A DNA stretch of 64,000 nucleotides from a virus (IMGVR_UViG_3300027983_002388), one strand, 5' to 3'. Shown: positions 11,713 through 63,231, counted from the first letter of the stretch. Notes: generated from the letters alone by a model not told the origin. A program made the numbers and translations.

Positions 11713-12521
11713 TCCAACCTCAAAGTTAAGCATTTACAGGCACCACCCGCTTTGATGAATTCGCTCATATCAGTATCGAATACCTCAAAACCCGCACTCA
11801 CCAAAAGAGCTTTTGTCGCCTCGCATCCGGCTGGAATGACAACTAGATTGCCAATAGCAACAGCATTGCAGGCGAACTTGCGAGCATCCTCTTCTGGTAC
11901 TCTGAGTAATTCTAGTCCGGCTTCCAGTGAAGAAACCGTATCTTTGTCAAAAGCTCCAGTCCAAATCAAAGCATAATCATCTTTGAGAGGACAAAAACAG
12001 GTATCCAAGTGGTAAAAATATGGATCAATCAATTTTAGATATTGAGCGTTTTCTGTCCTGAAAATTCCCCAATGTGAATTGGTGTCATAATCGCTACGAA
12101 ATCCATAGCCTAAATAAAGTTTTTTTTCAAAATCACTAGATTCTTCTTTGAATAAAGCATCGCCAGCACCCTCGAAATTAAACTCAGACGAAAATTGCAT
12201 AGTCTCAAAGCCGTTGGCCTCGAACCACATTTGATAATGTTTCTTTTCTGCCTGTCGTTCGGGATGTTTGAAATTAGAGAGCATGACTAGATTTTGATCT
12301 CGAAACACAAGTCCCGCATTTGCGGTAAATACCATGTCTGGAAGTCCAGGTTGTCCTGGCATGGTCATGATAGTAGCACCTAATTGATTTAATATATCAA
12401 TTAGGTCGTGCCATTGGCGAATAGCCAATTCTCGATCCGCTTGATTTTGGATACTCATCCAAGGATTGATTTCATATTCAATTCCATAATACGTTGGGTC
12501 GCAAACAAGTATTTTGTTCAT
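11709..12521 (-). CDS. Amidinotransferase/pentein superfamily (DDAH / arginine dihydrolase-like)
   Basis: ILVCDPTYYGIEYEINPWM, DMVFTANAG, FEGAGDA, YHLDTCF, KAGGACKCLTL. Confidence 0.85.
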   Translation of the reverse strand: MNKILVCDPTYYGIEYEINPWMSIQNQADRELAIRQWHDLIDILNQLGATIMTMPGQPGLPDMVFTANAGLVFRDQNLVMLSNFKHPERQAEKKHYQMWFEANGFETMQFSSEFNFEGAGDALFKEESSDFEKKLYLGYGFRSDYDTNSHWGIFRTENAQYLKLIDPYFYHLDTCFCPLKDDYALIWTGAFDKDTVSSLEAGLELLRVPEEDARKFACNAVAIGNLVVIPAGCEATKALLVSAGFEVFDTDMSEFIKAGGACKCLTLRLE

Positions 12522-12802
12522 CCATTGGTGCCTAAAGTTGGTGATGAAGACATGATACGGATGAGATCGCCAAGCGTACCCATCCGGCTTCTAATTTGTC
12601 CAACAACTTGATCTTGGACTTGTTGCCGCAATCCTTTGAACTCGCCGAGTCCATTAAGAATATTGATTAACTGCTCTGGTTCCCATGTGTCAATTCCTTG
12701 GGATAGACCGTGGGTTCGATCAAGGTTCAGTTTGCCAAGAAGGATATTCTTGTAAAAGTCATAACCTTTATCTTCCATTTCGGCAAGCCAAACCTTGAAC
12801 AT
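12518..12802 (-). CDS. Small protein with capsid-targeting-like N-terminus (MFKVWLAE)
   Basis: 94 aa; SD AGGTGG; N-terminal F-x-x-W-L-x-E. Confidence 0.7.
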   Translation of the reverse strand: MFKVWLAEMEDKGYDFYKNILLGKLNLDRTHGLSQGIDTWEPEQLINILNGLGEFKGLRQQVQDQVVGQIRSRMGTLGDLIRIMSSSPTLGTNG

Positions 12803-12857
12803 TATTTACCACCTATATTTATTCTAAAGGAGTTGAGTCTATTCCATATATAAAGTC

Positions 12858-13667
12858 ATGAACCGATTACTTTTCAAACAATGGATGTTATCCGAAATGG
12901 CCGATTTCGGATTTGACCAGGACCAACAAGGCCAGCCAAAAGGCGGCACGGAGGAAATGGAAGGAGACAGTCCGTTCAAAAATTTAGACGGTAGCAAAAT
13001 CATTACAGAACTGGCTAGTTTTCCAGCTTTAGGCCCAAATCAACCGCTTCGACGCTGGAACGATGTGGTCGAGTGGGGGAGTGGCCCAGGGGCAATTCAA
13101 GTTGGCGTGACTCCATTGGGATCAATGAGAGTCGTAATTCGCAGAATGACCAAAGACCTTTGCGGAGAGAATACCTGGATATGCACCAAGGTCATTCCTC
13201 TGAGTGACAATGCCGCCGAGAGCAAAGAAACATCTATAGCTCATGATGTGTACGACATGATAACGGAATCATCCAATGAAATGATTCCTGGTCCCGCTAA
13301 AGAGTTCGACGAACTAGAACGATTGTCTTGGAAGCTGTGGGCGGCAACAAAGCGAGATCATCCTTCATATTGCATGTTCCCTATCGGGATGCGTCAGCAA
13401 AATGAGAACTACTACAAGCTCGTGTTCGAGTTTCGTGGACACGGAGTTCAAAAAATCGGTAGTGGTGCCCGTGCCGAACAATTCAATATCGACATGGTAT
13501 GGGAACCAAAACGTGGTTTGATTCGTTGCTTGGGATATGATATTGATTCAAGTCTAGGACAACACTCCTGGAAAGTTCAGCCATCTGAATTCAACGAATA
13601 TTTTTCGCCCCAACAAAAACATGAAACTATCATTGCCAGCATAGTTCAGACTTTCTTGCAGTATTGA
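12858..13667 (+). CDS. Hypothetical protein with capsid-targeting-like N-terminus (MNRLLFKQWMLSE)
   Basis: 269 aa; ATATATAAA immediately upstream of ATG. Confidence 0.75.
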   Translation: MNRLLFKQWMLSEMADFGFDQDQQGQPKGGTEEMEGDSPFKNLDGSKIITELASFPALGPNQPLRRWNDVVEWGSGPGAIQVGVTPLGSMRVVIRRMTKDLCGENTWICTKVIPLSDNAAESKETSIAHDVYDMITESSNEMIPGPAKEFDELERLSWKLWAATKRDHPSYCMFPIGMRQQNENYYKLVFEFRGHGVQKIGSGARAEQFNIDMVWEPKRGLIRCLGYDIDSSLGQHSWKVQPSEFNEYFSPQQKHETIIASIVQTFLQY

Positions 13668-13721
13668 CCAACCTATAATAAAACGATAGTTGATCTAATC
13701 ATTTACTTTACAGAGGATATT

Positions 13722-14279
13722 ATGGACGCAAAAAAAGTCTTGGTTGCTGTGTTACTTCTCGTTGGAGCCGGTGCCTTGTATGTCAAATTCGGCAAACACA
13801 TTGTTGCGCCAGTCAAACCACCAGTAGAGATGAATGATCCCATCATTACTCCACCAGTTGCGCCGCCTGTAGTGCCAGACGTGGCGAAGCCACCTATTAT
13901 ACCTGAAATACCTGAAATATCTGAAATACTGGCCAGCTTCAGCAATTATCAAGAAGCCATAGCAGCAGCAAAAAAGCACAACCGACCATTGTTCTTGTAT
14001 TTTGGTGCCGAGTGGTGTGGCTGGTGCAAGAAGATGAAAGAAACACTTTCCAGTCCAGAAGTCAAAGACAAGCTAGGCAAGGAATATGTCACTTGCCTCA
14101 TTGACACCGACAAAGATCGTGCAACCGCCAGAAAATACAAAGTCTCAGGCATCCCGGCCTATATGGTCGTAGATGGCTCTGAGACTGTTGTGATTCGAGA
14201 TTCTGGGTTTAAGAGCAAAGACGACATGCTGGTTTGGTTGCGACCAAAGAATGTATCTTTGCTTGAGCTTAAAGACTAA
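13722..14279 (+). CDS. Membrane-anchored thioredoxin-fold protein
   Basis: N-terminal hydrophobic helix, Pro-rich linker, FGAEWCGWC, GIPAYMVV. Confidence 0.85.
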   Translation: MDAKKVLVAVLLLVGAGALYVKFGKHIVAPVKPPVEMNDPIITPPVAPPVVPDVAKPPIIPEIPEISEILASFSNYQEAIAAAKKHNRPLFLYFGAEWCGWCKKMKETLSSPEVKDKLGKEYVTCLIDTDKDRATARKYKVSGIPAYMVVDGSETVVIRDSGFKSKDDMLVWLRPKNVSLLELKD

Positions 14280-14617
14280 GCTGCTTTATTTTCTTGTAGT
14301 TTTTCGTACAACACTTCCTCGGTGGCCTCTAAAAGATCATCGAGACGATTTCGTGTATAGAACTTGCCTTTAATGCCACGAGTGTTGTAGACCTTATATC
14401 CAAGTTCAGTCAATGTGCCGAACACCTTCTCATGGGAGGGGTCCGGCATTTTTTCATTCAACCCCAAGGCGATTGCCAAGGGACAAAACTTGCCGTCTTC
14501 GTAGTTGTAAGTATCCAGGACCATTGGATCGGGATGCAGAAACACTCGCAGCAATTCCTCTACGTTCAATTGACGCAGGCCATTCTTGAGTCCAGTCTTG
14601 CGAGCATCTTCACACAT
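14276..14617 (-). CDS. Hypothetical protein (113 aa)
   Basis: ORF within a - strand run, SD-like AAGGA upstream. Confidence 0.7.
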   Translation of the reverse strand: MCEDARKTGLKNGLRQLNVEELLRVFLHPDPMVLDTYNYEDGKFCPLAIALGLNEKMPDPSHEKVFGTLTELGYKVYNTRGIKGKFYTRNRLDDLLEATEEVLYEKLQENKAA

Positions 14618-14626
14618 TTCATTTCC

Positions 14627-15196: not shown

Positions 15197-15200
15197 TCGA

Positions 15201-15968: not shown

Positions 15969-16173
15969 TCATCTCATCAGGGGTCATCTCAATTCCACTC
16001 TCGGCGGCATGAAGTCTTAAATCAAACTTTTCCTTATTTGACATAAGACCAACGGGCTTGCGATTGAGATTTCTCTTCAAACTGCGTAGTCTTTTAAGAA
16101 TGCCGAGAGCCTGCTTGGGCGTATATTCTTTGCCCAATTCAGCCAACCTATTGCGAAGTTCATTCTCGTTCAT
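15919..16173 (-). CDS. Hypothetical protein (84 aa)
   Basis: ATGA-coupled to the upstream ORF. Confidence 0.65.
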   Translation of the reverse strand: MNENELRNRLAELGKEYTPKQALGILKRLRSLKRNLNRKPVGLMSNKEKFDLRLHAAESGIEMTPDEMNDVMEIIIQIQEADFE

Positions 16174-16910: not shown

Positions 16911-16961
16911 TTTACCTCACATCTAAATGGTAGCCAAGCCCAATATATAAATCCATGAACT

Positions 16962-17924
16962 TCAGAGAATGGCTCTCACAATAGCAGAATAATCAGTTTG
17001 ATCCTGACCTTCTGTGCCATTCCAAGTTTCATTGATTTTTCTATCACCCTTTGCATTCTGCGACACATTTTTGTCGATCCAATATTTGCTCTCAACTGCC
17101 GAGAGATGCTTAATATTCATGCCCATTTGCGGAGCAAAATCAGCAGGCAACTCTGGCGTGAAACAAATCGTAGACCACAATGAAGGAGGAATTGCCAATA
17201 CGACAATATCAGCTTCGTGGATCGAACCATGAGCATCAACAACAACGACGGATGGCTCGGTGATGATGTGAACTACGGGGCAATTCAAGATCAATCGAGT
17301 GCCTAATTTTTGAGCAAACTTCAAAGCGAATTGCTGATTGCCGCCCTTTGTGCGATAGCTCTCTGTATCGGCCCAAAATTTATCGAAACCACCGCCTCTG
17401 ACGAGTACGATATTGCCCAACAAACTTTGTTTATCGGTAGAGACGCCGTTGTCACTTGACACTTGAATATCAAACAAATATTTGGCAATAGACGAAGCAT
17501 CTTGAGTGTGAATCCACTCTCGCATGGATATATTGTCCAAATATTCAGCTTGTGGCGACAGCCAAGGTTGATTTACGTCTATGTTTTCAGCCAATACCGA
17601 TAATGCAATTTGCATTTTGAATATTTCTGATTTGATATTTTCGTATTCACCTTGCGTCAACTTTTGATTTTGCAAAATGATCGGCGTTTCCGCTTCACTA
17701 TCTTCGGCAAGGAGAAACTCCAAACCAAATTCACGAGCGTATTCGATCAAGCAATGGTGATGAGAGCCAATAAGCTCTCCACCGAATTCGACGTTCATGC
17801 CAGAGATGAAATCGTCTCGACTGTATACTCGGCCACCAACTCGATTACGAGCTTCCAAGATTTCGACAGTGTGACCAGCGGTCATAAGCTCGTATGCACA
17901 AGCAAGACCGGAGAATCCTTCCAT
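16962..17924 (-). pseudogene. Flavin monoamine oxidase fragment, truncated at both ends
   Basis: GFSGLACAYEL...EARNRVGGRV...EFGGELIG; first Rossmann strand disrupted upstream; C-terminal FAGEH/GxMEGA region absent. Confidence 0.7.
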
Positions 17925-18710: not shown

Positions 18711-20021
18711 ATGGATCACTCTCAACTGGCAAAGGCTCTATCAGATTCGATGGGGCCAAATGTGTATATCTGTTGTAAGCCGGAAGTTCTTGACTTCACG
18801 GATCGGGTAGTTGTTCCTGAACTGCAAATATTCAGCCAGAGTGGGCTAGTCACGATTATGCTCACGGATGAAATATTGCCGATGCTTTTGCCTATGCTTC
18901 GATTGAGCGTATTTGGCAAGGGCAACAAGATTGTCACTTGGAATTGGAAGAACTTTGTAAGTTTCGTTCTGGCCAAGACTGGCAAGTCGTATTCCATTGA
19001 TGGGGCTATTATCGACTTGAAGATAATCGAAACTTATTGTGGGCGCAAGTTCAAAGCTCCCAAAACACTGATCGAGGCCATGAACAGGTTGAAAGATTTA
19101 ATCACCACAGGTATGTGGAAAGAGGTTGAGTCTGTATATCGCAAGGTTCATATTCCCCTCATCACCACGGTTATCCCGCATCTTGAAACCACAGGTATTC
19201 TCAACACTCAGTTGGGCAATAAGGTTTATGCCTATTACGAGATCAATGGCCAGGAGAATGGCCGTCTGAAGTGTTCTGGCGAGTATCAGCAGGGCTATGT
19301 GCCGCACGCCATGAAGCCAGAAACGAGGCAAATTCTAAAGCCTCGCACAGCCGATGAGTTGTTCATGGTCTTTGACTACAAGGGCATGGAAGTCTTCATG
19401 TTGGCTTGGATGAGCCAAGACCCGCTCTTGATGGAGCTTTGTCGTGAACCGGATGTTTATTTTGCCTTGTTCGAGAAGATTACCGGCAAAAAGTGCGAAG
19501 GAAAAAATGATCGTGAAATGGCGAAAAAATTCTTTCTGCCGGTTATATATGGACAGTCGGCTTATTCATTAAGTCAACGCTGCGGTGTCGCTTTAGATCT
19601 CGCAGAGATTATTACAGAACGCATTGACGCTTTGTTTCCGGCTGCTTTGGCCTTCATCGAGGGTTATCAGAAGCAGCTTCAAGAACTCGGATATGCCAAA
19701 GACATATTTGGCAAACGCCGCTCTAGCTTCGAGGAAGGCAAAGAATATTCTGTCAGAAATTTTGCAGTTCAGTCACCAGCATCCGTTGTGTGCCTGGAAA
19801 AGTTAGCCCACCTATATTTCGCCCTCAAAGATAAAACCGATCTCGCCTACACCGTCCATGACGGTTACGCTGTGTATGCAACGAAGGAGAACTGGAAGAC
19901 CATATACAAAATTGGTCGTGATGTTCTTACTGGCGATTCCGATTTTTGTCCCGGTTTACGACTTAGAGTAACTTGTCGTGCCGGTCGCAATCTTGATGAC
20001 CTGAAGTTACTCCGCACCTAG
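18711..20021 (+). CDS. Family A DNA polymerase, compact, thumb subdomain missing
   Basis: ENGRLKCS (TGRLSS-like), motif A VFDYKGME, motif B REMAKKFFLPVIYG, NFAVQSPAS, motif C VHDG. Confidence 0.85.
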   Translation: MDHSQLAKALSDSMGPNVYICCKPEVLDFTDRVVVPELQIFSQSGLVTIMLTDEILPMLLPMLRLSVFGKGNKIVTWNWKNFVSFVLAKTGKSYSIDGAIIDLKIIETYCGRKFKAPKTLIEAMNRLKDLITTGMWKEVESVYRKVHIPLITTVIPHLETTGILNTQLGNKVYAYYEINGQENGRLKCSGEYQQGYVPHAMKPETRQILKPRTADELFMVFDYKGMEVFMLAWMSQDPLLMELCREPDVYFALFEKITGKKCEGKNDREMAKKFFLPVIYGQSAYSLSQRCGVALDLAEIITERIDALFPAALAFIEGYQKQLQELGYAKDIFGKRRSSFEEGKEYSVRNFAVQSPASVVCLEKLAHLYFALKDKTDLAYTVHDGYAVYATKENWKTIYKIGRDVLTGDSDFCPGLRLRVTCRAGRNLDDLKLLRT

Positions 20022-25778: not shown

Positions 25779-26211
25779 AAAATGGGATAAGAGGTTTATT
25801 GATCTTGCAAAACATTTTGCCAAATGGAGCAAAGACCCAAGCACTCAAGTCGGTGCAGTTATCTTTGATAAAGATAATCGAATTATTTCTGTAGGCTACA
25901 ATGGGCTACCGGCAGGTGTTTCTGATGTTGGTTTAGAAGATAGAGATAGAAAGTATAAAACAATAATACACGCCGAGATGAATGCTATTATATTTGCAAA
26001 TAGAAGTTTGGATGGTTGCCAAATTGCAACGTGGCCTTTCATGCCTTGCTCTAATTGTTCATCTGCAATTATTCAATCGGGGATTGTTAGGTGTGTTTAC
26101 CCCAAAGCAACTGGTGAAAGAGCGATTAGATGGCAGGAATCTTTTAATTTGTCTAAGAGTCAATTTGATGAGGCTGGAGTTGTAACTAAAGAATATGACG
26201 AAATTGATTGA
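25771..26211 (+). CDS. dCMP deaminase
   Basis: WSKDPSTQVGAVI, GYNG, HAEMNAI, PCSNC; likely GTG start 25771. Confidence 0.92.
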   Translation: MDEKWDKRFIDLAKHFAKWSKDPSTQVGAVIFDKDNRIISVGYNGLPAGVSDVGLEDRDRKYKTIIHAEMNAIIFANRSLDGCQIATWPFMPCSNCSSAIIQSGIVRCVYPKATGERAIRWQESFNLSKSQFDEAGVVTKEYDEID

Positions 26212-26247
26212 AGCTAAGTTGGTTCTTTTGCATGGCTGATTGGGCAA

Positions 26248-27105
26248 ATGAAATTATCGTTCACTTTAGGTGGTGGTCTTGGGGATTATATCCTCAATTA
26301 TTTAGGCGATCCGGGCAATCGGCTTGCCTACATAATGATGGCTGTCCAGGATATTGAGTTCAGAGTTTCTGCTCAGTGTCCGGCTGGTATTGATCTTGTG
26401 AAGAATTCGCCATATTTCAAATTCCAGCATGTCTATCAAGAAAAGAAGTTCGCTCAGAATAGACTTAAAGATGACATTTCTAACATCGGTAATCTTGCCG
26501 AATATCTAAAAGTTATTCCTCCTCTTTGGCTTTCTTCAGAAGAAGAGGATATTTTGGTCAATGTGGTGCGACCATATGCTGTCTTCCATCCATTTGCCTC
26601 TCACGGGCCTCGCAACCTTACTGCGGCGTTCAATACGACCAACATGGTGCAATGGATCGCAGATGCGTCTGGGATTAACGTAGTCGTTTTGGGGCAAGAG
26701 GATTTTGGATATGAATCTGCTAACGTGAGACACATCAAGGGTAGTCCTCGGTTGGCAACAAAATTGGTGGAGCATTCATCCTTTTTTGTCGGTAGTCATA
26801 GTTCAATGCAGTGTGCTGCGTGGGTTCATGACATACCATCATTCTGCATAGGTCCAAGCCATTTGTTGTTTCACAATTTGTATTCACCGAGCAACAACGA
26901 CTTGTATTTGAAACCCTTATTTAAGGGCAAGAACATATTCATGATGTATGACCAAGCAGATCGGTTCTCTTATTTCTTAGACTATTTTTTAAGGACGGCC
27001 ACTTCTCTACAGCCTCAGCGAACCCCCGAAGAATGTCGGAGGAGGATAGCTCTGTCAGGCATGGCTTCTGAGCTTCTTTTGACTTCGGACAAGCAATCAT
27101 GTTGA
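26248..27105 (+). CDS. GT9-like (heptosyltransferase-like) protein
   Basis: GGGLGDYI, VFHPFAS, FFVGSHSSMQCAAW. Confidence 0.6.
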   Translation: MKLSFTLGGGLGDYILNYLGDPGNRLAYIMMAVQDIEFRVSAQCPAGIDLVKNSPYFKFQHVYQEKKFAQNRLKDDISNIGNLAEYLKVIPPLWLSSEEEDILVNVVRPYAVFHPFASHGPRNLTAAFNTTNMVQWIADASGINVVVLGQEDFGYESANVRHIKGSPRLATKLVEHSSFFVGSHSSMQCAAWVHDIPSFCIGPSHLLFHNLYSPSNNDLYLKPLFKGKNIFMMYDQADRFSYFLDYFLRTATSLQPQRTPEECRRRIALSGMASELLLTSDKQSC

Positions 27106-29211: not shown

Positions 29212-30375
29212 ATGGATCATCAAAAATTGATTTTGTTGCTAGAGCAAGCCATTGAAATTATAAAAGAGGCAGCAGTAGCAATTGAACCGGCAGTAGCAAT
29301 TGAACCGGCAGTAGCAATTGAACCGGCAGTAGCAATTGAACCGGCAGTAGCAATTGAACCGGCAGTAGCAATTGAACCGGCAGTAGCAATTGAACCGGCA
29401 GTAGCAATTGAACCGGCAGTAGCAATTGAACCGGCAGTAGCAATTGAACCGGCAGTAGCAATTGAACCGGCAGTAGCAATTGAACCGGCAGTAGCAATTG
29501 AAACGGCAGTAGCAATTGAACCGGCAGTAGCAATTGAACCGGCAGTAGCAATTGAACTGGCAGTAGCAATTGAACTGGCAGTAGCAATTGAACCGGCAGT
29601 AGCAATTGAACTGGCACTAGCAATTGAACTATTAAAAAGTGAAGAGTGGCCTGAAGCTGTTCCAGATTTTTTGATTTGTGAAGACACAGAATTAGATAAA
29701 ATGGAAAGAGGCGAAGGAATTCTGAGTTACATCAGTGAAAATTTGGAGAATAAAACATTTTTAGATTTCGGATGTGGCGAAGGGCATGTTTCGCACCTAG
29801 CATCCAGCATGACATCTAAAAGTGTAGGATACGATTTATCTCAGTTGGGTTCATTGGGTTGGGAAAAGGAAACGGAATCAAAATTTTTATTGACTACAGA
29901 TTTCAATAAAGTTCTAAACTATGCGCCCTATGATTTAATTCTTTTATATGACGTTTTAGATCATTGTCAAGATGTTTTAATTTTGCTTAACCAACTCAAA
30001 TCTATATGTGGACCAAAAACTAAGGTTTACGTGCGATGCCATAGCTGGATGAGTCGTCACGGCACTCACTTGTACAGAAAATTAAATAAGGCTTGGGTAC
30101 ATTTGTTCTTCACAGATGAAGAACTTAGTGCAATGGGATTGAAACCAGAATATACTAGGAAGTATTTTTTTCCAATAAATACTCAAAAAAAATGGTTTTC
30201 TGATTCTGGGTTTGAAATAATTCATTCAAGCATAGTTAAAACTGAAGTCGAGTCGTTTTTTTCCAAACCGGAGTTAATTTCAAGACTTCCAATTGAGTTC
30301 AAAGATTGTACATACTTACCACCAGAATTTCAAATGAGTCAAGTTTTTAATGATTATGTATTAAAGGTAATTTAA
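29212..30375 (+). CDS. Class I SAM-dependent methyltransferase with N-terminal (AVAIEP)n repeat
   Basis: FLDFGCGEG, VGYDL, YDLILLYDVLDH. Confidence 0.85.
   Translation: MDHQKLILLLEQAIEIIKEAAVAIEPAVAIEPAVAIEPAVAIEPAVAIEPAVAIEPAVAIEPAVAIEPAVAIEPAVAIEPAVAIEPAVAIEPAVAIETAVAIEPAVAIEPAVAIELAVAIELAVAIEPAVAIELALAIELLKSEEWPEAVPDFLICEDTELDKMERGEGILSYISENLENKTFLDFGCGEGHVSHLASSMTSKSVGYDLSQLGSLGWEKETESKFLLTTDFNKVLNYAPYDLILLYDVLDHCQDVLILLNQLKSICGPKTKVYVRCHSWMSRHGTHLYRKLNKAWVHLFFTDEELSAMGLKPEYTRKYFFPINTQKKWFSDSGFEIIHSSIVKTEVESFFSKPELISRLPIEFKDCTYLPPEFQMSQVFNDYVLKVI
29272..29631 (+). repeat. Coding VNTR: 20 x 18 nt (GCAGTAGCAATTGAACCG)
   Basis: Units 1-12 perfect; variants in units 13, 16, 17, 19, 20. Confidence 0.97.
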
Positions 30376-38349: not shown

Positions 38350-39513
38350 ATGAAAATGAATAAGGATGAGTTAAGAGAATATTTGAATAAGGACATCGAA
38401 AGTCTTCGTTCCCTGAATTTCAGTGAGCCGTATATCAAGTCGGTTTCTGAAAATACAAGCAAATGGGCCAATACGGGCCTGTTGGGAGGCATTGGCGATC
38501 CACATATTGGTCGCAATGTGGCGACCTTGCTGGAAAACCAGAGGCTGTTTAATGAACAGTGGCCGGGAAATGGGGCAACCCTGATTCCAGAGGGAGCAGA
38601 AACCGATATTCCAATGGAACATTGGGCTTCTCAATGGAAAAGGGTTAGTATCCCTGTAATGAGGCGTGTATTTGGTGAGAATTTCATTGGACACCACATA
38701 GTGTCTGTGCAGGCCATGAAAAGTGGTCAAGAGAATACTTACTTGATTGGCTTTGATGGTCGCACAATGTCTGGAATGACAGATGCCAACACTCGCCGGT
38801 TATCAGTTCAGTGGGATCATCCGATTTGGAAGCAGACTGAAGACGGTGCTAAATACGCTGAATTTAGAGGACAACAATATCACACGGGACTGGACGCAGA
38901 AGCCGAAGCGACCTCAGTATTTTCTGAGGCTATTTGTGCTGATTTCAGTCGAGAGATTATTCGAGATTTATCCATAAACGCTGGCAAGTCGGCTGTTGTT
39001 GAATACAAGGACGAATCTCATCTTTTATCCATGGTTGAAGGAATGAGTGCATATATTGCTGCCAAATGTTACAACAAAGAGGCAACCTGGGTTGTTACGA
39101 GTCCAACGATTGTGAAGCTGTTGGGAGAATATATCGAACCAGCTACAAATCAGTGGGGCAACATCGTAAATATCATTGCCCAAAGAGAAGGCGTCAACAA
39201 GATCGGGGTGTTGAATAAAAAGTGGCAATTGTTCGAGGACTCTACAGCACCAGCGGGGAATATACTGTTGGGGCTTAAAGATCATCGAAATCATTATTTT
39301 TCGGGATATGTGTTTGCCCCGTTCTTGCCAGTGAAGCCGATTCCTTCGTGGAAGACCGACGAACAAGAACAAGCTGGACACGTTTTGGCCCGCTACGGGA
39401 AGCGGCTCACCAATCCTGGCTTTTATGGCACGATAAAGATTGAGAACTTGCCAGAAGCCACTCCCTTAGAGAAATCGGAAGAGGCCGAAAGCGAGGAACA
39501 ACATGGGATATGA
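38350..39513 (+). CDS. T4 gp23/gp24-like capsid protein paralog
   Basis: KWANTGLL, ATLLENQ, IPVMRR, VSVQAM, EIIRDL, WVVTSP, GYVFAPFLP, VLARYG. Confidence 0.8.
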   Translation: MKMNKDELREYLNKDIESLRSLNFSEPYIKSVSENTSKWANTGLLGGIGDPHIGRNVATLLENQRLFNEQWPGNGATLIPEGAETDIPMEHWASQWKRVSIPVMRRVFGENFIGHHIVSVQAMKSGQENTYLIGFDGRTMSGMTDANTRRLSVQWDHPIWKQTEDGAKYAEFRGQQYHTGLDAEAEATSVFSEAICADFSREIIRDLSINAGKSAVVEYKDESHLLSMVEGMSAYIAAKCYNKEATWVVTSPTIVKLLGEYIEPATNQWGNIVNIIAQREGVNKIGVLNKKWQLFEDSTAPAGNILLGLKDHRNHYFSGYVFAPFLPVKPIPSWKTDEQEQAGHVLARYGKRLTNPGFYGTIKIENLPEATPLEKSEEAESEEQHGI

Positions 39514-47799: not shown

Positions 47800-48118
47800 C
47801 CCAAAACTCTTCGGCTTTTGACAACGATCTCATCATGTTTTTTGCGCCCACAGGATTCTTAGAATGCACTGCCCAAGTCAGTCGTGGCAGCGTTCCATGA
47901 AACGCTTGTTCTTCAATCCAATTGGCAACATCCATGCCTGTGCCAGCGCTTGGCGGTCCAAGATCATGATCCAGAGAGATAAACGTAACTCGACCCTGCT
48001 TCAGATGGTAAATTGCCACATCAGCGGTTTTTACCCACGTTTCGTCACCCTCGGACCCAAAAAGGCTTTGAATTTTTGGGTCACGAGGATCACGTTCATC
48101 GTCCAGCCACAACTTCAT
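47780..48118 (-). CDS. Cyclic-phosphate-processing receiver-domain protein
   Basis: KLWLDDERDP, ISLDHDLG, GMDVANWI, VHSKNPVG. Confidence 0.8.
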   Translation of the reverse strand: MKLWLDDERDPRDPKIQSLFGSEGDETWVKTADVAIYHLKQGRVTFISLDHDLGPPSAGTGMDVANWIEEQAFHGTLPRLTWAVHSKNPVGAKNMMRSLSKAEEFWDAATQE

Positions 48119-49388
48119 CACTAGACCTCCGATAAGCATCAGCTTCAGCCCCACTCATGGCGTCACTGATGGCTTTTCCTTTCAGGTGCATGAAGTCTTG
48201 CGACTTCACAGTTGGTTGGTAGTTCAAGAATCGTTGAAGCTCTGCTTCCTTGCCAGAAATTCTAGCGAAATCCAACACGTCTGTCGTTAGAACTTTTTGT
48301 CCTGCCGCCTGAAGTTCTGGATTCTCCAATTGCTTGTACAAGTCTCGATGTTTCAATAGCTGTGCTACCTGAGCCACGTCAAATCGGTACAACCTGACAA
48401 GGAAAGAAGTAGCGTCAGAAACATCATTGGCGTACTTGAGGCGATTGAGTTGAATTCGGACGGCTTTAGGGTCGTCTTGCTTCAATAGCCAAGCAAGCAC
48501 AGCTTTGATGTTCTTGACGTTTCCAATGCGATCTACATCGTGCATATCGACTTGAAGTCCTGGAAATACTGCGGGCAGCAATCCGGTGGCTTCGTAATTC
48601 TTCAGGTAGTTGACTGGACTAGCCGCCTTCTGAAGACCGCCAGTGAATTCGGCGGCGATACGTTCTGGTGAAACTCCAGCTAAGTCTTTGAATTCTTCAA
48701 TGGCCGATAGGGTTTCTTTATCCAGATGTTGCATGATGTATCCAGGATTGAAGCGTGAGAAGAACCGAACAAGTCGGGGGATTCTCAGCTTGTCTTCTCG
48801 GAAGCGATCACGAGCGTTTCCAACAGGACGGGCAACAAGATTCTTAATGTCGTGCAGCCCTTGTCCTTCTCCTTCATCGTTTAGGTTGTAGTCTCTGACT
48901 TCCTTCTTGTGAATGTCATAGAACAAAGCGTTGTAAGTTAGGTCACGACGTTGAGCATCTTTGGCTGGAGTGCTGAAGCTCACAGAGTCAGGACGCCTCC
49001 CATCGGTGTATTGTCCATCTTCCCGGAATGTTGCGATCTCGTATTCCTCTCCATCGACAACAGCGGAAATGACACCGAATGCTTCGCCTTTTGGAAAGGT
49101 TTTGATGCCTTGTGATTGAGCAGCCGGACTGCTCAAGATCGCCATCACCTTGTCGGGCGGCGCTTCGGTTGCAAGGTCTACGTCTTTTGGAGAAAATTTC
49201 CCGCCGTGGTGTTGGGAATATAGAAAATCCCGAATTACCCCACCTACGGCAAACAACGAGGCTCCCTGGCGGGCAAAAAGCTCGCTGAGGGTATACACCG
49301 CTGCGGGAAGCGGAATATCTGCCTTGATGCTGTGAAATTTTTCTTCCACGGTTTCTAAAAACCCCCGGAATTTAAGTTGTGCGACCAT
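48096..49388 (-). CDS. cca: CCA-adding enzyme / class II tRNA nucleotidyltransferase
   Basis: AVGGVIRD, KDVDLAT, EIATFR, DAQRRDLTYNAL, RFREDKLRIPR; no HD domain. Confidence 0.88.
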   Translation of the reverse strand: MVAQLKFRGFLETVEEKFHSIKADIPLPAAVYTLSELFARQGASLFAVGGVIRDFLYSQHHGGKFSPKDVDLATEAPPDKVMAILSSPAAQSQGIKTFPKGEAFGVISAVVDGEEYEIATFREDGQYTDGRRPDSVSFSTPAKDAQRRDLTYNALFYDIHKKEVRDYNLNDEGEGQGLHDIKNLVARPVGNARDRFREDKLRIPRLVRFFSRFNPGYIMQHLDKETLSAIEEFKDLAGVSPERIAAEFTGGLQKAASPVNYLKNYEATGLLPAVFPGLQVDMHDVDRIGNVKNIKAVLAWLLKQDDPKAVRIQLNRLKYANDVSDATSFLVRLYRFDVAQVAQLLKHRDLYKQLENPELQAAGQKVLTTDVLDFARISGKEAELQRFLNYQPTVKSQDFMHLKGKAISDAMSGAEADAYRRSSDEVVAGR

Positions 49389-51206: not shown

Positions 51207-51595
51207 AATTTCACATCAAGAAGAATGCCCACTTTGAGGCTCGTATATACATTGGCAATCGTGTCAAGTATAACGGGCCTCAATTTTCTTTTGCCGAGCT
51301 TAGAGAAGCCATTGGATATTTCCAATCAAACAATGGAATTGAGGCGTCCAATCCCGTTCGTATAACCCCCACAACATTTGTTTGGGAAAAGTACGATGAA
51401 GAGGGATGGGAAATCGCTGTAATTGATTACCCAAGGGTCAGCAAGCCGCATAGTGTTTTGCGTGAGTTTGCATACAACTTGGCAGTTCATTTGTTTGAGA
51501 GGTTTGAACAGAACCGAATGTCTATTGTTTTTCCCGACGAGATAGTTATGCTGGAGGCCGATGACGCAGAAGAAAACAAGTACAACCAAAAGTAA
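51203..51595 (+). CDS. Hypothetical protein (130 aa)
   Basis: ATGA-coupled ORF. Confidence 0.75.
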   Translation: MKFHIKKNAHFEARIYIGNRVKYNGPQFSFAELREAIGYFQSNNGIEASNPVRITPTTFVWEKYDEEGWEIAVIDYPRVSKPHSVLREFAYNLAVHLFERFEQNRMSIVFPDEIVMLEADDAEENKYNQK

Positions 51596-51611
51596 TCGCA
51601 AGGAGAAAAAA

Positions 51612-54600
51612 GTGCCTGTAGTAATCAAAGCTGAGGATCAGCCTGTTGTTGTAGCTACATCTGATTATCCTTACGCCAAATGGAAGTTTGAGACGTTCAA
51701 TCCGGTTCAAAGTCGGATTATGGATTTTTATGACAAGGATGTAAACGGTCTTATCGCCGCTATGACTTCAGCAGGCAAGACAGTCGTAGCTGAAATGTTT
51801 CTTGCGCAAGAAATTCGTAAACGTGGTGGCAAGGGCATGTTCCTTGCTCCTTTGCGTGCATTGGCTCGTGAGAAAATCACCGATTGGAAAAACGAGAATT
51901 ATCACTTCGCCGACCAGAAAATTTCTATCTGCACAGGTGATTATAGGCTCACAAAAGAGCGTGCCAAAGAATTGAATGATGCCAATCTCATCATCATGAC
52001 TTCGGAAATGTTAAATCACCGCAGTCGCAATCATAAGGCCGAACAAAATAATTGGCTTCTTGATGTTGGCACGTTAATTATTGATGAATGTTTGTCTCCA
52101 AATGCAATAATTGAAACAGATCAAGGTCCAATTTCTATTGGAGACATCATTGACAAAAATCTGGATGTTAAAGTTGCATCCATGAATCACTCAACCAAAC
52201 AAATTGTATTCAAAAAAATAGTTGCTCGTCAGAAAAAGTTGTTAAAAAGAAGATGGCACACCATATATTATGACGGTGGGCATATTTCTGCGACATCAAA
52301 TCATTTGGTGTGGTGTGAAAATCGTGGTTATATTCCCTCTAAAGACATTCAAGAGGGAGATGTTATTTATGTACGAGGAATTAACGAAGAGAGAAAAACA
52401 AGTAATATTGGGAACTTTACTGGGAGACGGTTCGATAGCTCGACTTCCGCACGGAAAGTCAGCAAGATTGAGGGTTCAACAGTGTTCGGCTCAAAAGGCT
52501 TTAGTCGAATGGAAGTACAACGAGTTGAAGCGATTGGTTGGCACCCCTCCACAAATCAAACCGAACCAAGGGTACGGAAAGGAAGTGTGCAGATTCAACA
52601 CATTGTCAAGCAAAATGTTGTTGGCAATACATTCGATGTGTTATCCACGAGGGAAGAAAATAGTAAATTCTCAGTGGTTGGACGAGATCACCGATCCGGT
52701 GGCATTGGCGGTGTGGTACATGGACGACGGAAGCCAGGGTCCAAGTATGATGGCAATTCACACCGAGGGCTTTCCCAAATCAGAAGTGGAATTGTTAGCG
52801 CATTGGTTGGAAACGAAATGGTCGGTGGCTTGCGAAGCCTATCCGACAAAACAATATTGGCAACTCAGATTTCCAGCGAAGGGTCGGGATCGTTTTCAAG
52901 AACTGGTTCGTCACGAAATAATTTCAGACATGAATTACAAGGTGCTGCCAAAAATGGAGCAGATATTTTGTTCGATGTGTGGTCAGAAATTCATCGCAGA
53001 TCGCCGCAGTCTTCATCAAGTCAGGAAGGTCATGCTTTGTGGGGCCAAGGAGTGTCGGTTGAATTGGGACAGGATGTACAGCCGGACGGAGACATGGATT
53101 CAGAGGAATCTTGGTGTTGCGACTTAGAAGTTGAATCTGATTGTTTTGAAGATTGCAATTTTTTTGCAGATGGAGTTCTTGTCCATAATAGTCACTTGTT
53201 GACTGTTCCAGGTCGTGGAGATCACCTGGAAGTTGGACTCATGAAGTTCACAGAGATCAATCCCAAGGCTCGTCTCGTGTTGCTTTCAGCAACGATGCCT
53301 AATGTAGAAGAGATTGCCGACTGGATTAGTTATTCTTTGACCAAGCGTGAAACTTTCATGTTGCGGTCCAAGTATCGACCAGTGCCTTTGACTCTTCACT
53401 ATGAGTCTTATTACGACGTAGGCAGATACGATCAAGTCGAAGAAGAGAAGGTCAATAAAGCCCTTGAAATTATTGAATGGTATCCAGACGACAAGTTCCT
53501 TGTCTTCGCCCATACAAAGCGTACTGGCGAATTGATGAAGCAAAATTTGCGATCATTGGGCATTGAAGCTCAATTTCACAATGCTGATTTGCAAGCTGAT
53601 GAGCGTGCTAAGGTGGAAGATCGTTTCAAAACTGATCCTAAGCTACGGGTCATTGTGGCTACATCGACTTTGGCATGGGGCTTAAACCTTCCTGCTCGAC
53701 GTGTGATTATTTTGGGCGTCAATCGAGGAATTGGCGAGGTTGAAACTCACGATATTCTTCAGATGGTCGGTCGATCTGGTCGGCTGGGAATTGATCCGAT
53801 GGGTGATGCGTACATCCTCGTTCCTGAAAGTGAAGAGGCAAAATATCGTCAGAAATTCAGCAAGCCGAATCGTATTGAATCCCAGCTTTTAGAAAAAGTT
53901 GGTGACAAATACAAGGTGTTAGCTTTCCATCTTGTTAGTGAAATTCATCACGGCACTGTGTCAACAACCGATGATGTTCATGCTTGGTATAAGCGGTCGT
54001 TGGCTTATTTCCAAAACAAGGCTCTGGATGAAACTGTTGTAGACCAGACTTTAGACTTACTGCGGAAATGCAGTGCGGTTTGGAAAGAAGATGCTGTTGA
54101 AGGTGAGACGGATGAAAAATGGATTTGCCGACCTATTGGGAAAGTTTCCAGCATGTTTTACTTCAGTCCATTTGATGTCTCGGACTTGTATTTTAACTTC
54201 AAGAATTTATTCCAAGACAATAAAGAGGACGACGATTACTTCGTGTCAACGGCTCTGGGAAATATTGATGGTCAGAGAATGAATATAGTTTCTCGTATTG
54301 AGAAAGAAGAGATGAGTCTTTATGCCGCAAAGGTGCGGACCTTGATGCCAGGGAAGTTCTTCAATGATGCCTCTTTGAAGGCTAGTTTTTGCTACTTCAA
54401 TTTGTTAAATGGCGTGAACAGCCAAGCCTGTGCCACAACGCAAAGGAATCTTCAGTTCGATTTCAATCGGCTGTCACAGGTTCTTCAGTCGCTCGATACA
54501 TTTGGCGGCAATTGGCAACGTGAAAGTTACTTCAAGATTCTTGAGGGGCGTATTACCAATGGGGTTCCAGTTCACTTAGTTGATCTTTGTCGTTTGGCAA

Positions 54601-54776
54601 ACATTGGCAAAGCACGAGCTACGAAGCTCTATGAAGCTGGATTTAAGACTGTTGAATCGGTTGCTGATATGGACTTTGAGAACTTCAAGAAGATTGTCAA
54701 CAGTACGGGTAAATCCATGAAGGTAGACGCAGCTAAGGAAGTGTTTGAATCTGCCAAGGTGTTCGCTTTGCTTTAA
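51612..54776 (+). CDS. Ski2/Hel308-like SF2 helicase interrupted by an intein
   Basis: FNPVQ, MTSAGKT, IIDE|intein|SH, LSATMPN, ATSTLAWGLNLPA, QMVGRSGR, C-terminal HhH; SD AGGAG before GTG 51612. Confidence 0.92.
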   Translation: MPVVIKAEDQPVVVATSDYPYAKWKFETFNPVQSRIMDFYDKDVNGLIAAMTSAGKTVVAEMFLAQEIRKRGGKGMFLAPLRALAREKITDWKNENYHFADQKISICTGDYRLTKERAKELNDANLIIMTSEMLNHRSRNHKAEQNNWLLDVGTLIIDECLSPNAIIETDQGPISIGDIIDKNLDVKVASMNHSTKQIVFKKIVARQKKLLKRRWHTIYYDGGHISATSNHLVWCENRGYIPSKDIQEGDVIYVRGINEERKTSNIGNFTGRRFDSSTSARKVSKIEGSTVFGSKGFSRMEVQRVEAIGWHPSTNQTEPRVRKGSVQIQHIVKQNVVGNTFDVLSTREENSKFSVVGRDHRSGGIGGVVHGRRKPGSKYDGNSHRGLSQIRSGIVSALVGNEMVGGLRSLSDKTILATQISSEGSGSFSRTGSSRNNFRHELQGAAKNGADILFDVWSEIHRRSPQSSSSQEGHALWGQGVSVELGQDVQPDGDMDSEESWCCDLEVESDCFEDCNFFADGVLVHNSHLLTVPGRGDHLEVGLMKFTEINPKARLVLLSATMPNVEEIADWISYSLTKRETFMLRSKYRPVPLTLHYESYYDVGRYDQVEEEKVNKALEIIEWYPDDKFLVFAHTKRTGELMKQNLRSLGIEAQFHNADLQADERAKVEDRFKTDPKLRVIVATSTLAWGLNLPARRVIILGVNRGIGEVETHDILQMVGRSGRLGIDPMGDAYILVPESEEAKYRQKFSKPNRIESQLLEKVGDKYKVLAFHLVSEIHHGTVSTTDDVHAWYKRSLAYFQNKALDETVVDQTLDLLRKCSAVWKEDAVEGETDEKWICRPIGKVSSMFYFSPFDVSDLYFNFKNLFQDNKEDDDYFVSTALGNIDGQRMNIVSRIEKEEMSLYAAKVRTLMPGKFFNDASLKASFCYFNLLNGVNSQACATTQRNLQFDFNRLSQVLQSLDTFGGNWQRESYFKILEGRITNGVPVHLVDLCRLANIGKARATKLYEAGFKTVESVADMDFENFKKIVNSTGKSMKVDAAKEVFESAKVFALL
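52089..53189 (+). mobile_element. Intein (367 codons) inserted in the DExH Walker B motif
   Basis: Starts CLSPNAIIET, block B SATSNH, ends CCDLEVE...NFFADGVLVHN followed by Ser+1. Confidence 0.95.
52369..53127 (+). CDS. LAGLIDADG homing endonuclease (252 aa) in the +1 frame inside the intein
   Basis: ILGTLLGDGSI and LAVWYMDDGS motifs; C-terminal CSMC...CGAKEC; SD GAGGGAG 9 nt upstream of ATG 52369. Confidence 0.9.
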   Translation: MYEELTKREKQVILGTLLGDGSIARLPHGKSARLRVQQCSAQKALVEWKYNELKRLVGTPPQIKPNQGYGKEVCRFNTLSSKMLLAIHSMCYPRGKKIVNSQWLDEITDPVALAVWYMDDGSQGPSMMAIHTEGFPKSEVELLAHWLETKWSVACEAYPTKQYWQLRFPAKGRDRFQELVRHEIISDMNYKVLPKMEQIFCSMCGQKFIADRRSLHQVRKVMLCGAKECRLNWDRMYSRTETWIQRNLGVAT

Positions 54777-57976: not shown

Positions 57977-58004
57977 TTAGTTCCCCCGGTTGATATATAC
58001 GAAT

Positions 58005-58526
58005 ATGACACGCACTTTACACGGCTTCCGAAAGTTTGTACTTGAAGACATGGACCCAACTCCAGATAAGTCTCGTAGTGTTGCTATGGGTTCAGGGGAT
58101 GAAGATAAAGGAACTGAAGATTATTTCGGTGCCTTGGGCGACGAACAGGGAATTGAATGGAAAGACCTGACAAGGATATTCGAGGACGAACCTTGGGTTT
58201 CATCCCACTTTGGATTGGGAACTCCCAATAAAGAAGTTCTGTACAAGCTGTCGGCATGGGAAATAGTCAAGGGATCGCTCACGCCAAGAGGAGCAGACAT
58301 ACGATTGAAACCCCAGAAGGGAAATCGTAGTTATCTCTCAGGGAATAAGTTGAATAAATCTAAATACGAAGACACCAACCGTTATCACCTGGGTCGTCAA
58401 GAACTCATTAAGTTTCTGACCACAGGTTGGACGCCAGCAGCCCAAGGAGCGGGCGGTGGCATGGGAGCCGACCCAATGGGCGGCATGGGTGGTGGAATGC
58501 CAGGAGCAGCACCAGCCCCAATGTAA
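58005..58526 (+). CDS. Hypothetical protein with capsid-targeting-like N-terminus (MTRTLHGFRKFVLE) and Gly/Met-rich tail
   Basis: ATATATA 5 nt upstream of ATG. Confidence 0.75.
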   Translation: MTRTLHGFRKFVLEDMDPTPDKSRSVAMGSGDEDKGTEDYFGALGDEQGIEWKDLTRIFEDEPWVSSHFGLGTPNKEVLYKLSAWEIVKGSLTPRGADIRLKPQKGNRSYLSGNKLNKSKYEDTNRYHLGRQELIKFLTTGWTPAAQGAGGGMGADPMGGMGGGMPGAAPAPM

Positions 58527-58537
58527 AAAGGAGAAAT

Positions 58538-58726
58538 ATGAAATTCAGAGATTGGTTGCAATTACAAGAAGTCGGGACTGGCAGTAACGCCGTCGCCGTA
58601 TTTTCCCGCCCTGTTGGTATTGGCATGGTTCAAAGAGAACCAGTAGATATGATCGGCTTCCGTGACGAAGATCACAAGAAAAAACACAAGAAACACAAAA
58701 AACAGGACGATCTTGACCACAAATAA
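58538..58726 (+). CDS. Small protein with capsid-targeting-like N-terminus (MKFRDWLQLQE)
   Basis: SD AAGGAG; K/H-rich tail. Confidence 0.7.
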   Translation: MKFRDWLQLQEVGTGSNAVAVFSRPVGIGMVQREPVDMIGFRDEDHKKKHKKHKKQDDLDHK

Positions 58727-58925
58727 TGGTCTAGGTATGATGCTGTCTCGATTCGATATTATGCAGAGCAGAAATCGGCGATTCAGTGATCTAACTTGGT
58801 GACACACCACCAGCGGCCCCTGGAACGCCGAATGAAGTCTACACAGTAAGTCGATGGCTTCGAGGAGATTACCAGAAAAACACCACAGCTTCCTTTCTAG
58901 GGGCTGTTTTCATTTGGAGATGAGT

Positions 58926-59537: not shown

Positions 59538-59634
59538 AGACATAGTTTTGGCAAATTTAGATTTGTTGAAGACGCTGCCTAATTTAGATTTTTATGGATT
59601 TTCACTGGTCAATACTACTTGAAAGATAATACAG

Positions 59635-60546: not shown

Positions 60547-60561
60547 TTTTTTGAAGCCTTG

Positions 60562-60592
60562 AAAGCCCACAACAAAGTTGTGGGCTTTTTTT
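60562..60592 (+). terminator. Intrinsic terminator
   Basis: aaagcccacaac-aaa-gttgtgggcttt + T-run. Confidence 0.85.
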
Positions 60593-60613
60593 GTTGACAT
60601 ACTTACTTATGTT

Positions 60614-62041: not shown

Positions 62042-62057
62042 CCGAGTAAGTGCAAAG

Positions 62058-62375
62058 TTACTTATCACATTTTGCACAGGTGCGGGCATCGCAGCACTTT
62101 TTATCGGGACCACAGTTGCATTCAAGACAATTGCAACCTTCGGCTCCGCAGGCACATCTGACGCCGCACTTGCATTTATCACAGCACTTGCCATCACATT
62201 TGCAGCAGCAGTCCTTGCAACAAAGACACCCGCAATCACAAGATGTGCAGGCACGCCCGCAATCACAAGACTTGCATTCGTGCTTTTTACAAGGGAAACC
62301 AAGACCAAGACAGATCAAGCCAGCGGCTAATATACCAGCCAGCGATCCAAGAAACGCTCCAATAAAACACTTCAT
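62058..62375 (-). CDS. Membrane-anchored metallothionein-like protein (30 Cys / 105 aa)
   Basis: SD AGGAG; hydrophobic N-terminus then CxC/CC/CCC clusters. Confidence 0.75.
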   Translation of the reverse strand: MKCFIGAFLGSLAGILAAGLICLGLGFPCKKHECKSCDCGRACTSCDCGCLCCKDCCCKCDGKCCDKCKCGVRCACGAEGCNCLECNCGPDKKCCDARTCAKCDK

Positions 62376-62433
62376 GGGTAATACTCCTAAGTTGATGTTT
62401 ATCCTTCAGTAGATATGATTCTATGGAGGAAAT

Positions 62434-62712
62434 ATGGCACGGCGAAAACTGACGATAAACAAGATTGCAAAGAAACATTGCGACGGCAAGTGTTACTTTT
62501 GTCCGTGTGATACTTACGACCTCTTAGACGTTCACCGTATCATCGAAGGATCGCAGGGCGGAAAGTATACGGACTTTAATACGATCACCGTATGTAGCTT
62601 GTGTCATCGTAAAATCCATGCTGGTTTGATTCGCATTGATCGTAAGTATTTTTCTACCGCTGGCAGGTGGATGCTTCATCATTGGATTGGCGATGAAGAA
62701 AAATGGTCTTAA
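62434..62712 (+). CDS. Small HNH endonuclease
   Basis: CYFC...VHRI...GGKY...N...CSLCHRKIH. Confidence 0.8.
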   Translation: MARRKLTINKIAKKHCDGKCYFCPCDTYDLLDVHRIIEGSQGGKYTDFNTITVCSLCHRKIHAGLIRIDRKYFSTAGRWMLHHWIGDEEKWS

Positions 62713-62981
62713 CGTGCGCCAAGTTGTTTTGCGGCATCTGGACCACCGAGGTAAGCACCTACAGCGCCAGCAGCAGTTGGGTCTTTCTGGACCAGTTTTT
62801 CTACATTGGCATCTTGTGTTAGGGCTTGCTTAATCACTGGCACTGGAGTCAATCCAGGAAGAACTTTAGGGTTCTTTTTTGCAACCATATTCCCAACATC
62901 GGCTATTTTGTTGCTGATTGAGGGCGATGATTCATCAAACGCTCTATCTCGTTCTGCTGCGAATTCTTTGAATGTCTTCAT
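62709..62981 (-). CDS. Small protein with capsid-targeting-like N-terminus (MKTFKEFAAE)
   Basis: Very close to T4 CTS MKTYQEFIAE; TAAATA upstream. Confidence 0.75.
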   Translation of the reverse strand: MKTFKEFAAERDRAFDESSPSISNKIADVGNMVAKKNPKVLPGLTPVPVIKQALTQDANVEKLVQKDPTAAGAVGAYLGGPDAAKQLGAR

Positions 62982-63036
62982 ATTTCTATTTACTCCTCAG
63001 CAATCAATTTTGGCTGAACATCATACATAGTGTAGT

Positions 63037-63231
63037 ATGATGACATTCCTTCAATATTTGAACGAGCAAGAGAAGCGTGTAAAGCTCTACGGCATGGGTA
63101 CGGGACATTCTCCCGGCAAGATGTTTAGTGTTGTGAATCCAGCTAAACCAGCCAAGCCGATTTTTACGGGCCTAAATGTCAATACCATCCATCCAGTCCC
63201 AAGAAATGGAAAACCAGTTAAGGGATTGTGA
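63037..63231 (+). CDS. Small protein with capsid-targeting-like N-terminus (MMTFLQYLNE)
   Basis: 64 aa; N-terminal F-x-x-Y-L-x-E. Confidence 0.65.
   Translation: MMTFLQYLNEQEKRVKLYGMGTGHSPGKMFSVVNPAKPAKPIFTGLNVNTIHPVPRNGKPVKGL

Follow-up and report, generated by a model that had tools for sequence, protein, structure and literature searches.

Candidate T4-type capsid-targeting peptides at the N-termini of unrelated proteins in a huge freshwater phage

Introduction

Why should proteins that otherwise share nothing begin with nearly the same few amino acids? The question is raised by a viral DNA stretch of 64,000 nucleotides (nt), IMGVR_UViG_3300027983_002388 (hereafter the window, meaning the whole stretch at its full length), which comes from a huge uncultured freshwater T4-like phage. 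A first-pass annotation made from the sequence had pointed to a dispersed family of genes whose products share a short N-terminal tag, and had proposed that the tag resembles the capsid targeting sequence (CTS) of phage T4 and marks packaged, injected effectors. We find that the tag is a real, selected and portable N-terminal peptide on unrelated proteins. By sequence and by analogy with T4, these tags are probably T4-type CTSs, acting as N-terminal propeptides.

The T4 precedent is well defined. The first 10 residues of internal protein (IP) III suffice for packaging; residues 4 and 7 (Y4 and F7) mainly govern targeting, residues 8 and 10 govern processing, and gp21 cleaves after L/I-x-E (PMC9026906).

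Results

Seven genes of the window encode the tag

All seven intact tagged N-termini that had been reported translate as described, from the following genes:

62709–62981 (−): small basic protein of 90 amino acids (aa), mature isoelectric point (pI) about 9.5, similar in size to T4 internal proteins; tag MKTFKEFAAE
63037–63231 (+): very basic 64-aa protein, mature pI 10.8; tag MMTFLQYLNE; TACATA box 7 nt upstream
58005–58526 (+): conserved core protein of 173 aa; tag MTRTLHGFRKFVLE
58538–58726 (+): basic 62-aa protein, immediately 3' of the 173-aa gene; tag MKFRDWLQLQE; AAGGAG Shine-Dalgarno sequence
48096–49388 (−): class II tRNA nucleotidyltransferase (CCA-adding enzyme) of 430 aa, Pfam PF01743 and PF12627; tag MVAQLKFRGFLE precedes the catalytic domain
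12858–13667 (+): conserved core protein of 269 aa; tag MNRLLFKQWMLSE
12518–12802 (−): 94-aa protein, divergent from the 269-aa gene; tag MFKVWLAE

In all seven, the tag runs from the initiating Met to residues 8 to 14. Three of the cargoes are small and basic, as are the T4 internal proteins, with mature pI values of 9.5 to 10.8. The tagged proteins had been called mutually unrelated, and BLASTP comparison of their mature parts bears this out, with no match below E = 0.1.

In AlphaFold2 (AF2) models of the 269-aa and 173-aa proteins, the tag is a short helix, joined by a flexible linker of about 25–30 residues to a confidently modelled domain. In the 269-aa model, the tag forms a helix at residues 6–12, residues 13–44 are disordered, and the domain at residues 45–269 has mostly predicted local distance difference test (pLDDT) scores of 84–98. 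In the 173-aa model, the helix spans residues 8–14, a low-confidence linker extends to about residue 40, and the folded domain occupies residues 40–145. Foldseek comparison of the two cargo domains with the PDB gave nothing at E ≤ 0.001. VIA-align against 48,161 chains returned generic alpha+beta matches only, with no convincing solved relative for either domain; Z values for residues 147–269 of the 269-aa model reached 8.7, within the range that the tool calls common.

The motif is concentrated at protein starts

The motif originally drawn from the tags, F-x-x-[FWY]-[LAVM]-x(0-3)-E, was counted in the window and applied unchanged to two relatives, neither of which had been used to define it. 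One is a 223-kb IMG/VR contig, IMGVR_UViG_3300020172_006270 (G005), syntenic with the window over 0–28 kb at 76–91% protein identity. The other is LR756511.1, an unannotated metagenomic phage of 595 kb and the sole GenBank record matching both the capsid protein and the 269-aa protein, at about 30% identity.

Six N-terminal matches were found in the window against 0.2–0.3 in shuffled N-termini (maximum 3 in 1000 shuffles). The window gene set came from crude gene calling that misplaced the start of the gene at 58538, hence the seventh tag was left uncounted. G005 gave 16 N-terminal matches (0.7 expected) and LR756511.1 gave 26 (3.0 expected), so that the excess over shuffled controls ranged from 9- to 25-fold across the three sequence sets. 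The first-pass annotation would have abandoned the tag had the motif been no more frequent at N-termini than internally. In the window the motif occurs at N-termini about 25 times more often than by chance, and inside proteins at chance level (4 matches against 5.1 expected); internal matches are also at chance in both relatives.

A tightened motif, F[KRLS].[FWY][LAVMI].{0,3}E, has 14 matches in the six-frame translation of the window, and half of them (7/14) fall at the starts of the seven tagged open reading frames (ORFs). Looser N-terminal motifs mostly recovered starts intrinsic to the domain, such as MKLWLDDE at 48121 (−) and MSILEKFLKLE at 60614, which were not counted as tags.

Pooling the window, G005 and LR756511.1 yielded 48 tags. 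Residue 4 is the commonest place for the first F (19 tags). Three positions further on, W stands in 28, F in 14 and Y in 6, and the residue following this second aromatic is L in 26, V in 11, M in 7 and A in 4, the residue classes at both positions being fixed by the motif. At P3, L is the commonest residue (16), and W, E, V and A also occur. Some 5–7% of ORFs here bear a tag.

The tag is conserved within families and portable between proteins

The 269-aa protein has 84 homologue clusters, with identity down to 35%, and F6 and E13 are conserved in at least 90% of its 77 aligned homologues; the orthologue in LR756511.1 starts MKSFASWFNE. For the 173-aa protein, with 102 homologue clusters, F8 is invariant among 83 aligned homologues, at least 90% of which also keep F11 and E14. 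The start MKTF[KR]E[FY] is nearly invariant among 24 homologues of the 90-aa protein. Orthologues of the 94-aa protein start with MFKVWLTE in G005 and MKNFRVWLEE in LR756511.1, and both relatives keep its divergent pairing with the 269-aa gene. Substitutions within the tags are K/R, F/W/Y and L/I/V/M exchanges, and such conservative changes indicate selection on the protein rather than on the RNA.

The CCA-adding enzyme shows that the peptide is portable. About 21 of the best 150 cluster representatives have a similar tag, and the others begin directly at the domain; some larger homologues place a tag ahead of a different first domain. The enzyme of LR756511.1 starts MRTTFLEFMGLKE.

The tag agrees with the T4 targeting sequence

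The likeness to T4 that had been claimed holds at the residues shown by experiment to matter. In the T4 genome (AF158101), IPII and IPIII start with MKTYQEFIAE and IPI with MKTFKEFTST; other starts are MELITELFDE (Alt), MAKINELLRE (gp24), MNEPQLLIE (gp21) and MLKEQLIAE (gp22). The first seven residues of the window tag MKTFKEFAAE, MKTFKEF, are those of IPI; past the tag, no similarity between the 90-aa protein and IPI was found. In AF158101, IPI begins MKTFKEFTSTTTPVSTITE. The 90-aa family has a second h-x-E at about residues 15–17, which is reminiscent of IPI in that IPI is cut after residue 19.

Like the T4 CTS, carried by IPI, IPII and IPIII and related to the propeptides of Alt and gp24 (Mullaney and Black 1996; PMC9026906, PMC3012670), the window tags occupy the N-terminal 8–14 residues, place an aromatic near residue 4, a second aromatic three residues later, an aliphatic and then Glu, and precede unrelated cargo. 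Unlike in T4, where the first aromatic is Y, the first aromatic here is F and the second is W in most of the pooled tags; the spacer before Glu varies from 0 to 3 residues. The share of tagged ORFs also far exceeds that in T4, where 4 of 271 ORFs qualify (IPI, IPII, IPIII and gp61.1), and the cargo here includes a CCA-adding enzyme and conserved core proteins.

The unmodified motif is weak in T4 itself (1 match against 0.8 expected), because the T4 internal proteins start with Y; a relaxed motif recovers IPII, IPIII and gp61.1. The last, encoded at 18966–19130 (−) of AF158101, is a 54-aa hypothetical protein with the CTS-like start MKTFKEFIKE and lies outside the three named internal proteins.

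T4-type tags in other phages

IMG/VR was scanned with a degenerate DNA pattern for MKTFKEF, which gave at least 120 stretches. Among the matches listed, 119 of 124 stand at the start of an ORF of 40 aa or more; 107 of these 119 ORFs have a Glu at residues 9–14, and the bodies are diverse. On these matches, T4-type tags are common in environmental phages. MKTFKEF followed by h-x-E was seen at the starts of at least 119 ORFs of 49–451 aa (IMG/VR loci L074–L193), and a recurrent family of about 160–170 aa among them continues with SSLSRIKSKSDKGG.

RaK2 and XacN1, cultured jumbo phages with the same protease family as the lineage studied here, had no tag enrichment (2 matches each, against 0.9 and 0.6 expected), which indicates that the expansion of tags is specific to this lineage. 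Two XacN1 proteins, ORFs 314 and 352 (AP018399, 190362–191417 (−) and 238329–239063 (+)), do have CTS-like starts, MRFVQYLIE and MRFTSYLIE. Their annotation goes no further than predicted ORF, and the XacN1 proteome covers excised gel bands only.

A T4-type head module in the lineage

A T4-type tag calls for a prohead protease. None was found in the window by Pfam and PHROGs searches of the neighbours of the capsid gene, nor in the window and related loci by tblastn with the T4 and LR756511.1 proteases; the short IMG/VR relatives likewise yielded none. In G005, a Peptidase_S77 protein is encoded at 187673–188356 (91.7 bits, E = 4.8e-27; T4, the positive control for this search, scored 372 bits). 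It lies in a head module comprising a 634-aa protein, the 227-aa protease, a 298-aa Lys/Glu-rich scaffold-like protein and a 478-aa main capsid protein 29% identical to T4 gp23 over 432 aa. LR756511.1 has the protease (95.9 bits), scaffold and capsid in the same cluster, and in both relatives the scaffold-like neighbour of the protease is coiled-coil. By these matches, the lineage encodes protease, scaffold and capsid as a module of T4 type.

The capsid proteins of G005 and LR756511.1 start with MNANSRFLNE and MSANAKFLNE, respectively, ten-residue peptides ending in F-L-N-E. This ending has the form [aromatic]-L-x-E, which recurs in the tags (MMTFLQYLNE, for example), and of the internal evidence it is the strongest hint of a protease site at the Glu.

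The window contributes a further head protein, which provides context for a T4-type head:

38350–39513 (+): gp23-family capsid paralogue of 387 aa, starting MKMNKDELREYLNKDIE; Pfam PF07068, phrog_138

Being 29–31% identical to the 478-aa protein of G005, it is a paralogue and not the main capsid protein, and is probably a vertex protein. It stands alone beside an island of sugar-modifying genes; the main capsid gene of G005 lies about 150 kb away, in the head module.

These results also bear on the idea that the tag is a site for a partner outside the capsid, such as a modifying enzyme, a chaperone, a degradation or timing signal, or a membrane anchor. The window does encode a candidate modifying enzyme, a radical-SAM/SPASM protein (7708–8802), and a short amphipathic helix, as in the AF2 models, would suit such a partner. 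This enzyme sits among glycosyltransferases, however, and LR756511.1, with at least 26 tags, has no homologue of it; T4 has none either. Moreover, the tag corresponds residue by residue to the experimentally defined T4 targeting sequence, and it ends in the same way as the N-terminal peptide of the capsid protein. We consider a non-capsid partner improbable.

A late-like box lies next to the start codon

Several tagged genes had been described as following TATATA or TAAATA boxes reminiscent of late promoters. The boxes are there, and their spacing is strict: exactly 5 nt separate the box from the ATG at 12858, 58005, 62981 (−) and 16955, and 4 nt at 4469 (−), the last two being broken copies treated below. 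Those of the intact genes are:

62987–62992 (−): TAAATA box, 5 nt before the ATG at 62981
57994–57999 (+): TATATA box, 5 nt before the ATG at 58005
12847–12852 (+): TATATA box, 5 nt before the ATG at 12858

The box consensus is TA[ACT]ATA. In the window, a box 3–7 nt before the ATG was found for 4/6 tagged and 0/87 untagged ORFs (P = 5e-6). Boxes near the ATG were likewise associated with tags in G005 (11/16 tagged against 12/312 untagged, P = 5e-11) and in LR756511.1 (11/26 against 56/1070, P = 7e-8). No Shine-Dalgarno sequence is present at 12858, 58005 or 16955, where box and spacer occupy 12847–12857, 57994–58004 and 16944–16954. The box matches the consensus of the T4 late promoter, TATAAATA, which is centred at −10; with this centring and a 5-nt spacing, the first transcribed nucleotide would be the A of the ATG. 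This suggests that the tagged late mRNAs are leaderless. In T4, by contrast, the internal-protein genes carry Shine-Dalgarno leaders.

Such an arrangement could in principle account for the tag at the level of RNA, as a downstream element for translating leaderless late mRNAs, since in most tagged genes the box is placed so that transcription would start at the AUG. Three observations make this explanation scarcely credible. Tags are also present on genes with a Shine-Dalgarno sequence and no box (58538, 49388 and 12802), so the tag is not a device for leaderless translation. The substitutions described above conserve the amino acid. Finally, only 1 of the 119 MKTFKEF ORFs among the IMG/VR matches listed has a near-ATG box. 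The leaderless arrangement thus appears particular to this lineage, and the tag does not.

Tagged genes are gained, lost and broken between close relatives

Two further copies in the window had been noted as broken, and both turned out to be genuine remnants:

3689–4469 (−): frameshifted tagged gene; MGLRF, a +1 shift, then SKWLVVSE and a 251-aa body
4455–4500 (−): hairpin with a perfect 19-bp stem; TAAATA (4474–4479) in the loop, ATG (4469) in the 3' arm
16944–16984 (+): TATATA box, 5 nt, then the nine-codon stub MNFREWLSQ and a stop codon; remnant of a deleted tagged gene of about 92 aa

A relative was compared at each site (L047 and L048, respectively). At the first, a 1-nt insertion has separated the ORF at 3689–4444 (251 aa) from its start; in L047, a single frame encodes MGLSFSKWLVVSE. 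The extra base also brings the 3' arm of the hairpin into perfect complementarity with the 5' arm, and the stem is shorter in L047, so that the frameshift looks like a quasipalindrome-templated mutation. The hairpin is predicted to be very stable (−30.3 kcal/mol, z −9.4). On read-through transcripts it would mask the start codon, which would stay accessible on transcripts begun at the box. T4 genes e, soc and 49 have the same arrangement of hairpin and start.

At the second site, L048 has an intact gene of about 92 aa that starts MNFREWLLNE and is convergent with a full-length, 428-aa amine oxidase gene. A deletion of about 0.57 kb left the stub in the window and cut the amine oxidase (16962–17924 (−)) from the 428 aa of relatives to 320 aa. 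Reading the TAG of the stub as sense did not rescue the gene, as TAA and TGA stops follow downstream.

A third difference lies between the divergent 269-aa and 94-aa genes. In G005, a tagged gene of 338 aa (MGAFRSWLNMNE; 25877–26893) stands there; it is absent from the window, where 55 nt separate the two genes. Three events of gain, loss or breakage were therefore found within 28 kb relative to a phage about 80% identical in DNA.

This turnover has to be weighed against the conservation of other bearers. The description of the tagged proteins as effectors was too broad, since the 269-aa and 173-aa proteins are conserved core proteins throughout the clade. By analogy, these two could equally be components of the prohead core or of assembly, as are T4 gp67 and gp68. 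It might even be that the tag targets the prohead core and that most bearers are assembly or core proteins consumed in maturation, as are T4 gp67, gp68 and gp22, and not injected effectors. The wide distribution of the two core proteins favours such a scheme, as do the synteny of the 269-aa/94-aa pair out to LR756511.1 and the h-x-E peptides with which the T4 core proteins, and the protease itself, begin. However, gain and loss between close relatives fits accessory cargo; three of the bearers are small and basic like T4 internal proteins, and the CCA-adding enzyme has no obvious role in assembly. That most tagged proteins are consumed in this way is, in our judgement, unlikely.

Other features of the window

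Besides the gp23-family protein, the window encodes a family A DNA polymerase, a DnaB-like helicase, a RecA/UvsX-like recombinase and a gp32-like single-strand-binding protein. A megablast search with 12 kb of it returned zero matches among GenBank phages; metagenomic contigs of up to 462 and 602 kb carry its capsid and 269-aa proteins.

The sugar-modifying genes form a low-GC island at about 29–37 kb (GC 34–38%), with a glycosyltransferase, a UDP-galactopyranose mutase and related genes. Its first gene, at 29212–30375 (+), encodes a methyltransferase-domain protein with N-terminal tandem AVAIEP repeats. At 51561–54776 (+) lies a gene for a 1071-aa DEAD/Helicase_C protein with a weak match to an intein-splicing domain at residues 188–543; on this match, the helicase appears to be interrupted by an intein.

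Discussion

On the basis of the T4 precedent, the following course of events can be proposed. The tagged proteins would be made late. Their first 8–14 residues would form a short helix with two aromatics three apart, and this helix would dock the protein onto the scaffolding core during prohead assembly. A gp21-type prohead protease would then cut after the Glu that ends the tag, and the mature protein would remain in the head with the DNA. Part of the cargo may leave with the DNA at infection, by analogy with T4 IPI–III and Alt. The predicted packaging of the tagged proteins is well supported by this analogy.

Several observations weigh against it. The prohead protease is seen in relatives only and not in the window. 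The P3 residues of the window tags (A, L, L, L, L, V and F) include some other than L or I. E10 varies in the 90-aa family, where some orthologues have G, D, A or K instead. The residues that follow the Glu in the 269-aa and 173-aa families (MADYGF and MDP) are as conserved as the tag, so the tag may be one part of a functional segment that extends further from the N-terminus. The protease alone does not predict tags, since RaK2 and XacN1 have the protease family and lack tag enrichment. Finally, the tagged share of 5–6% of genes, with a tRNA enzyme in it, goes far beyond any proven repertoire of proteins packaged by a short tag.

Two other systems invite comparison. In phiKZ, 201phi2-1 and SPN3US, head and ejection proteins are cut at S/A-x-E by the gp21-like gp175 and gp245 (PMC5694885, PMC9026906). 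Their propeptides, mostly 80 to >160 residues long (PMC5694885), are thought to target proteins into the prohead. The lineage described here resembles the phiKZ group in being giant phages with many predicted head-internal proteins; processing after Glu by a gp21 homologue is a feature of that group. Unlike the tags, however, the phiKZ-type propeptides are long, lack a short consensus and have a small P3 residue (S or A), and the group is a different lineage, marked by an RNA polymerase in the virion and by a phage nucleus in some of its members. With 8–14 residues and a P3 that is mostly L or another bulky residue, the tags fall outside the long-propeptide type.

The second system is that of encapsulins, in which unrelated cargo is guided into a shell of the HK97 fold by a short conserved peptide at one terminus. 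Encapsulin cargo-loading peptides are usually C-terminal, are uncleaved and attach to the shell protein itself; encapsulins neither package nor eject a genome.

The tags are well supported as a further case of the T4 CTS type, on a larger scale and tied to an unusual arrangement of the promoter. In the literature searched, whose coverage was incomplete, no account was found of huge phages with an expanded set of short CTS-type tags, or of a CCA-adding enzyme that is packaged. Tentatively, the box, the start codon and the tag might be taken together as a cassette of about 45 bp for making a protein late, leaderless from the AUG, and loading it into the head, which could be placed before any gene. 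At least 5% of the proteome, the CCA-adding enzyme included, would then be drawn into the head. The cargo would amount to an injected enzyme kit, which might, for example, restore tRNA 3' ends when host defences attack tRNAs, and the cargo set would turn over rapidly. We regard this extension as possible but rather doubtful.

If the tag works as in T4, the set of proteins packaged by an uncultured huge phage, which as a rule can be learned only by virion proteomics of cultured phages, could be read from its genome, and part of that set may be injected. The T4 loading mechanism would then scale from about four proteins to dozens, and translation enzymes such as the CCA-adding enzyme could be cargo, which would point to pre-made countermeasures delivered with the DNA. 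The close association of the tags with a box 5 nt before the ATG suggests that there are late genes with leaderless mRNAs, a class that T4 is not known to have. The tags themselves would offer short, natural and portable loading peptides, suited to the established T4 packaging system.

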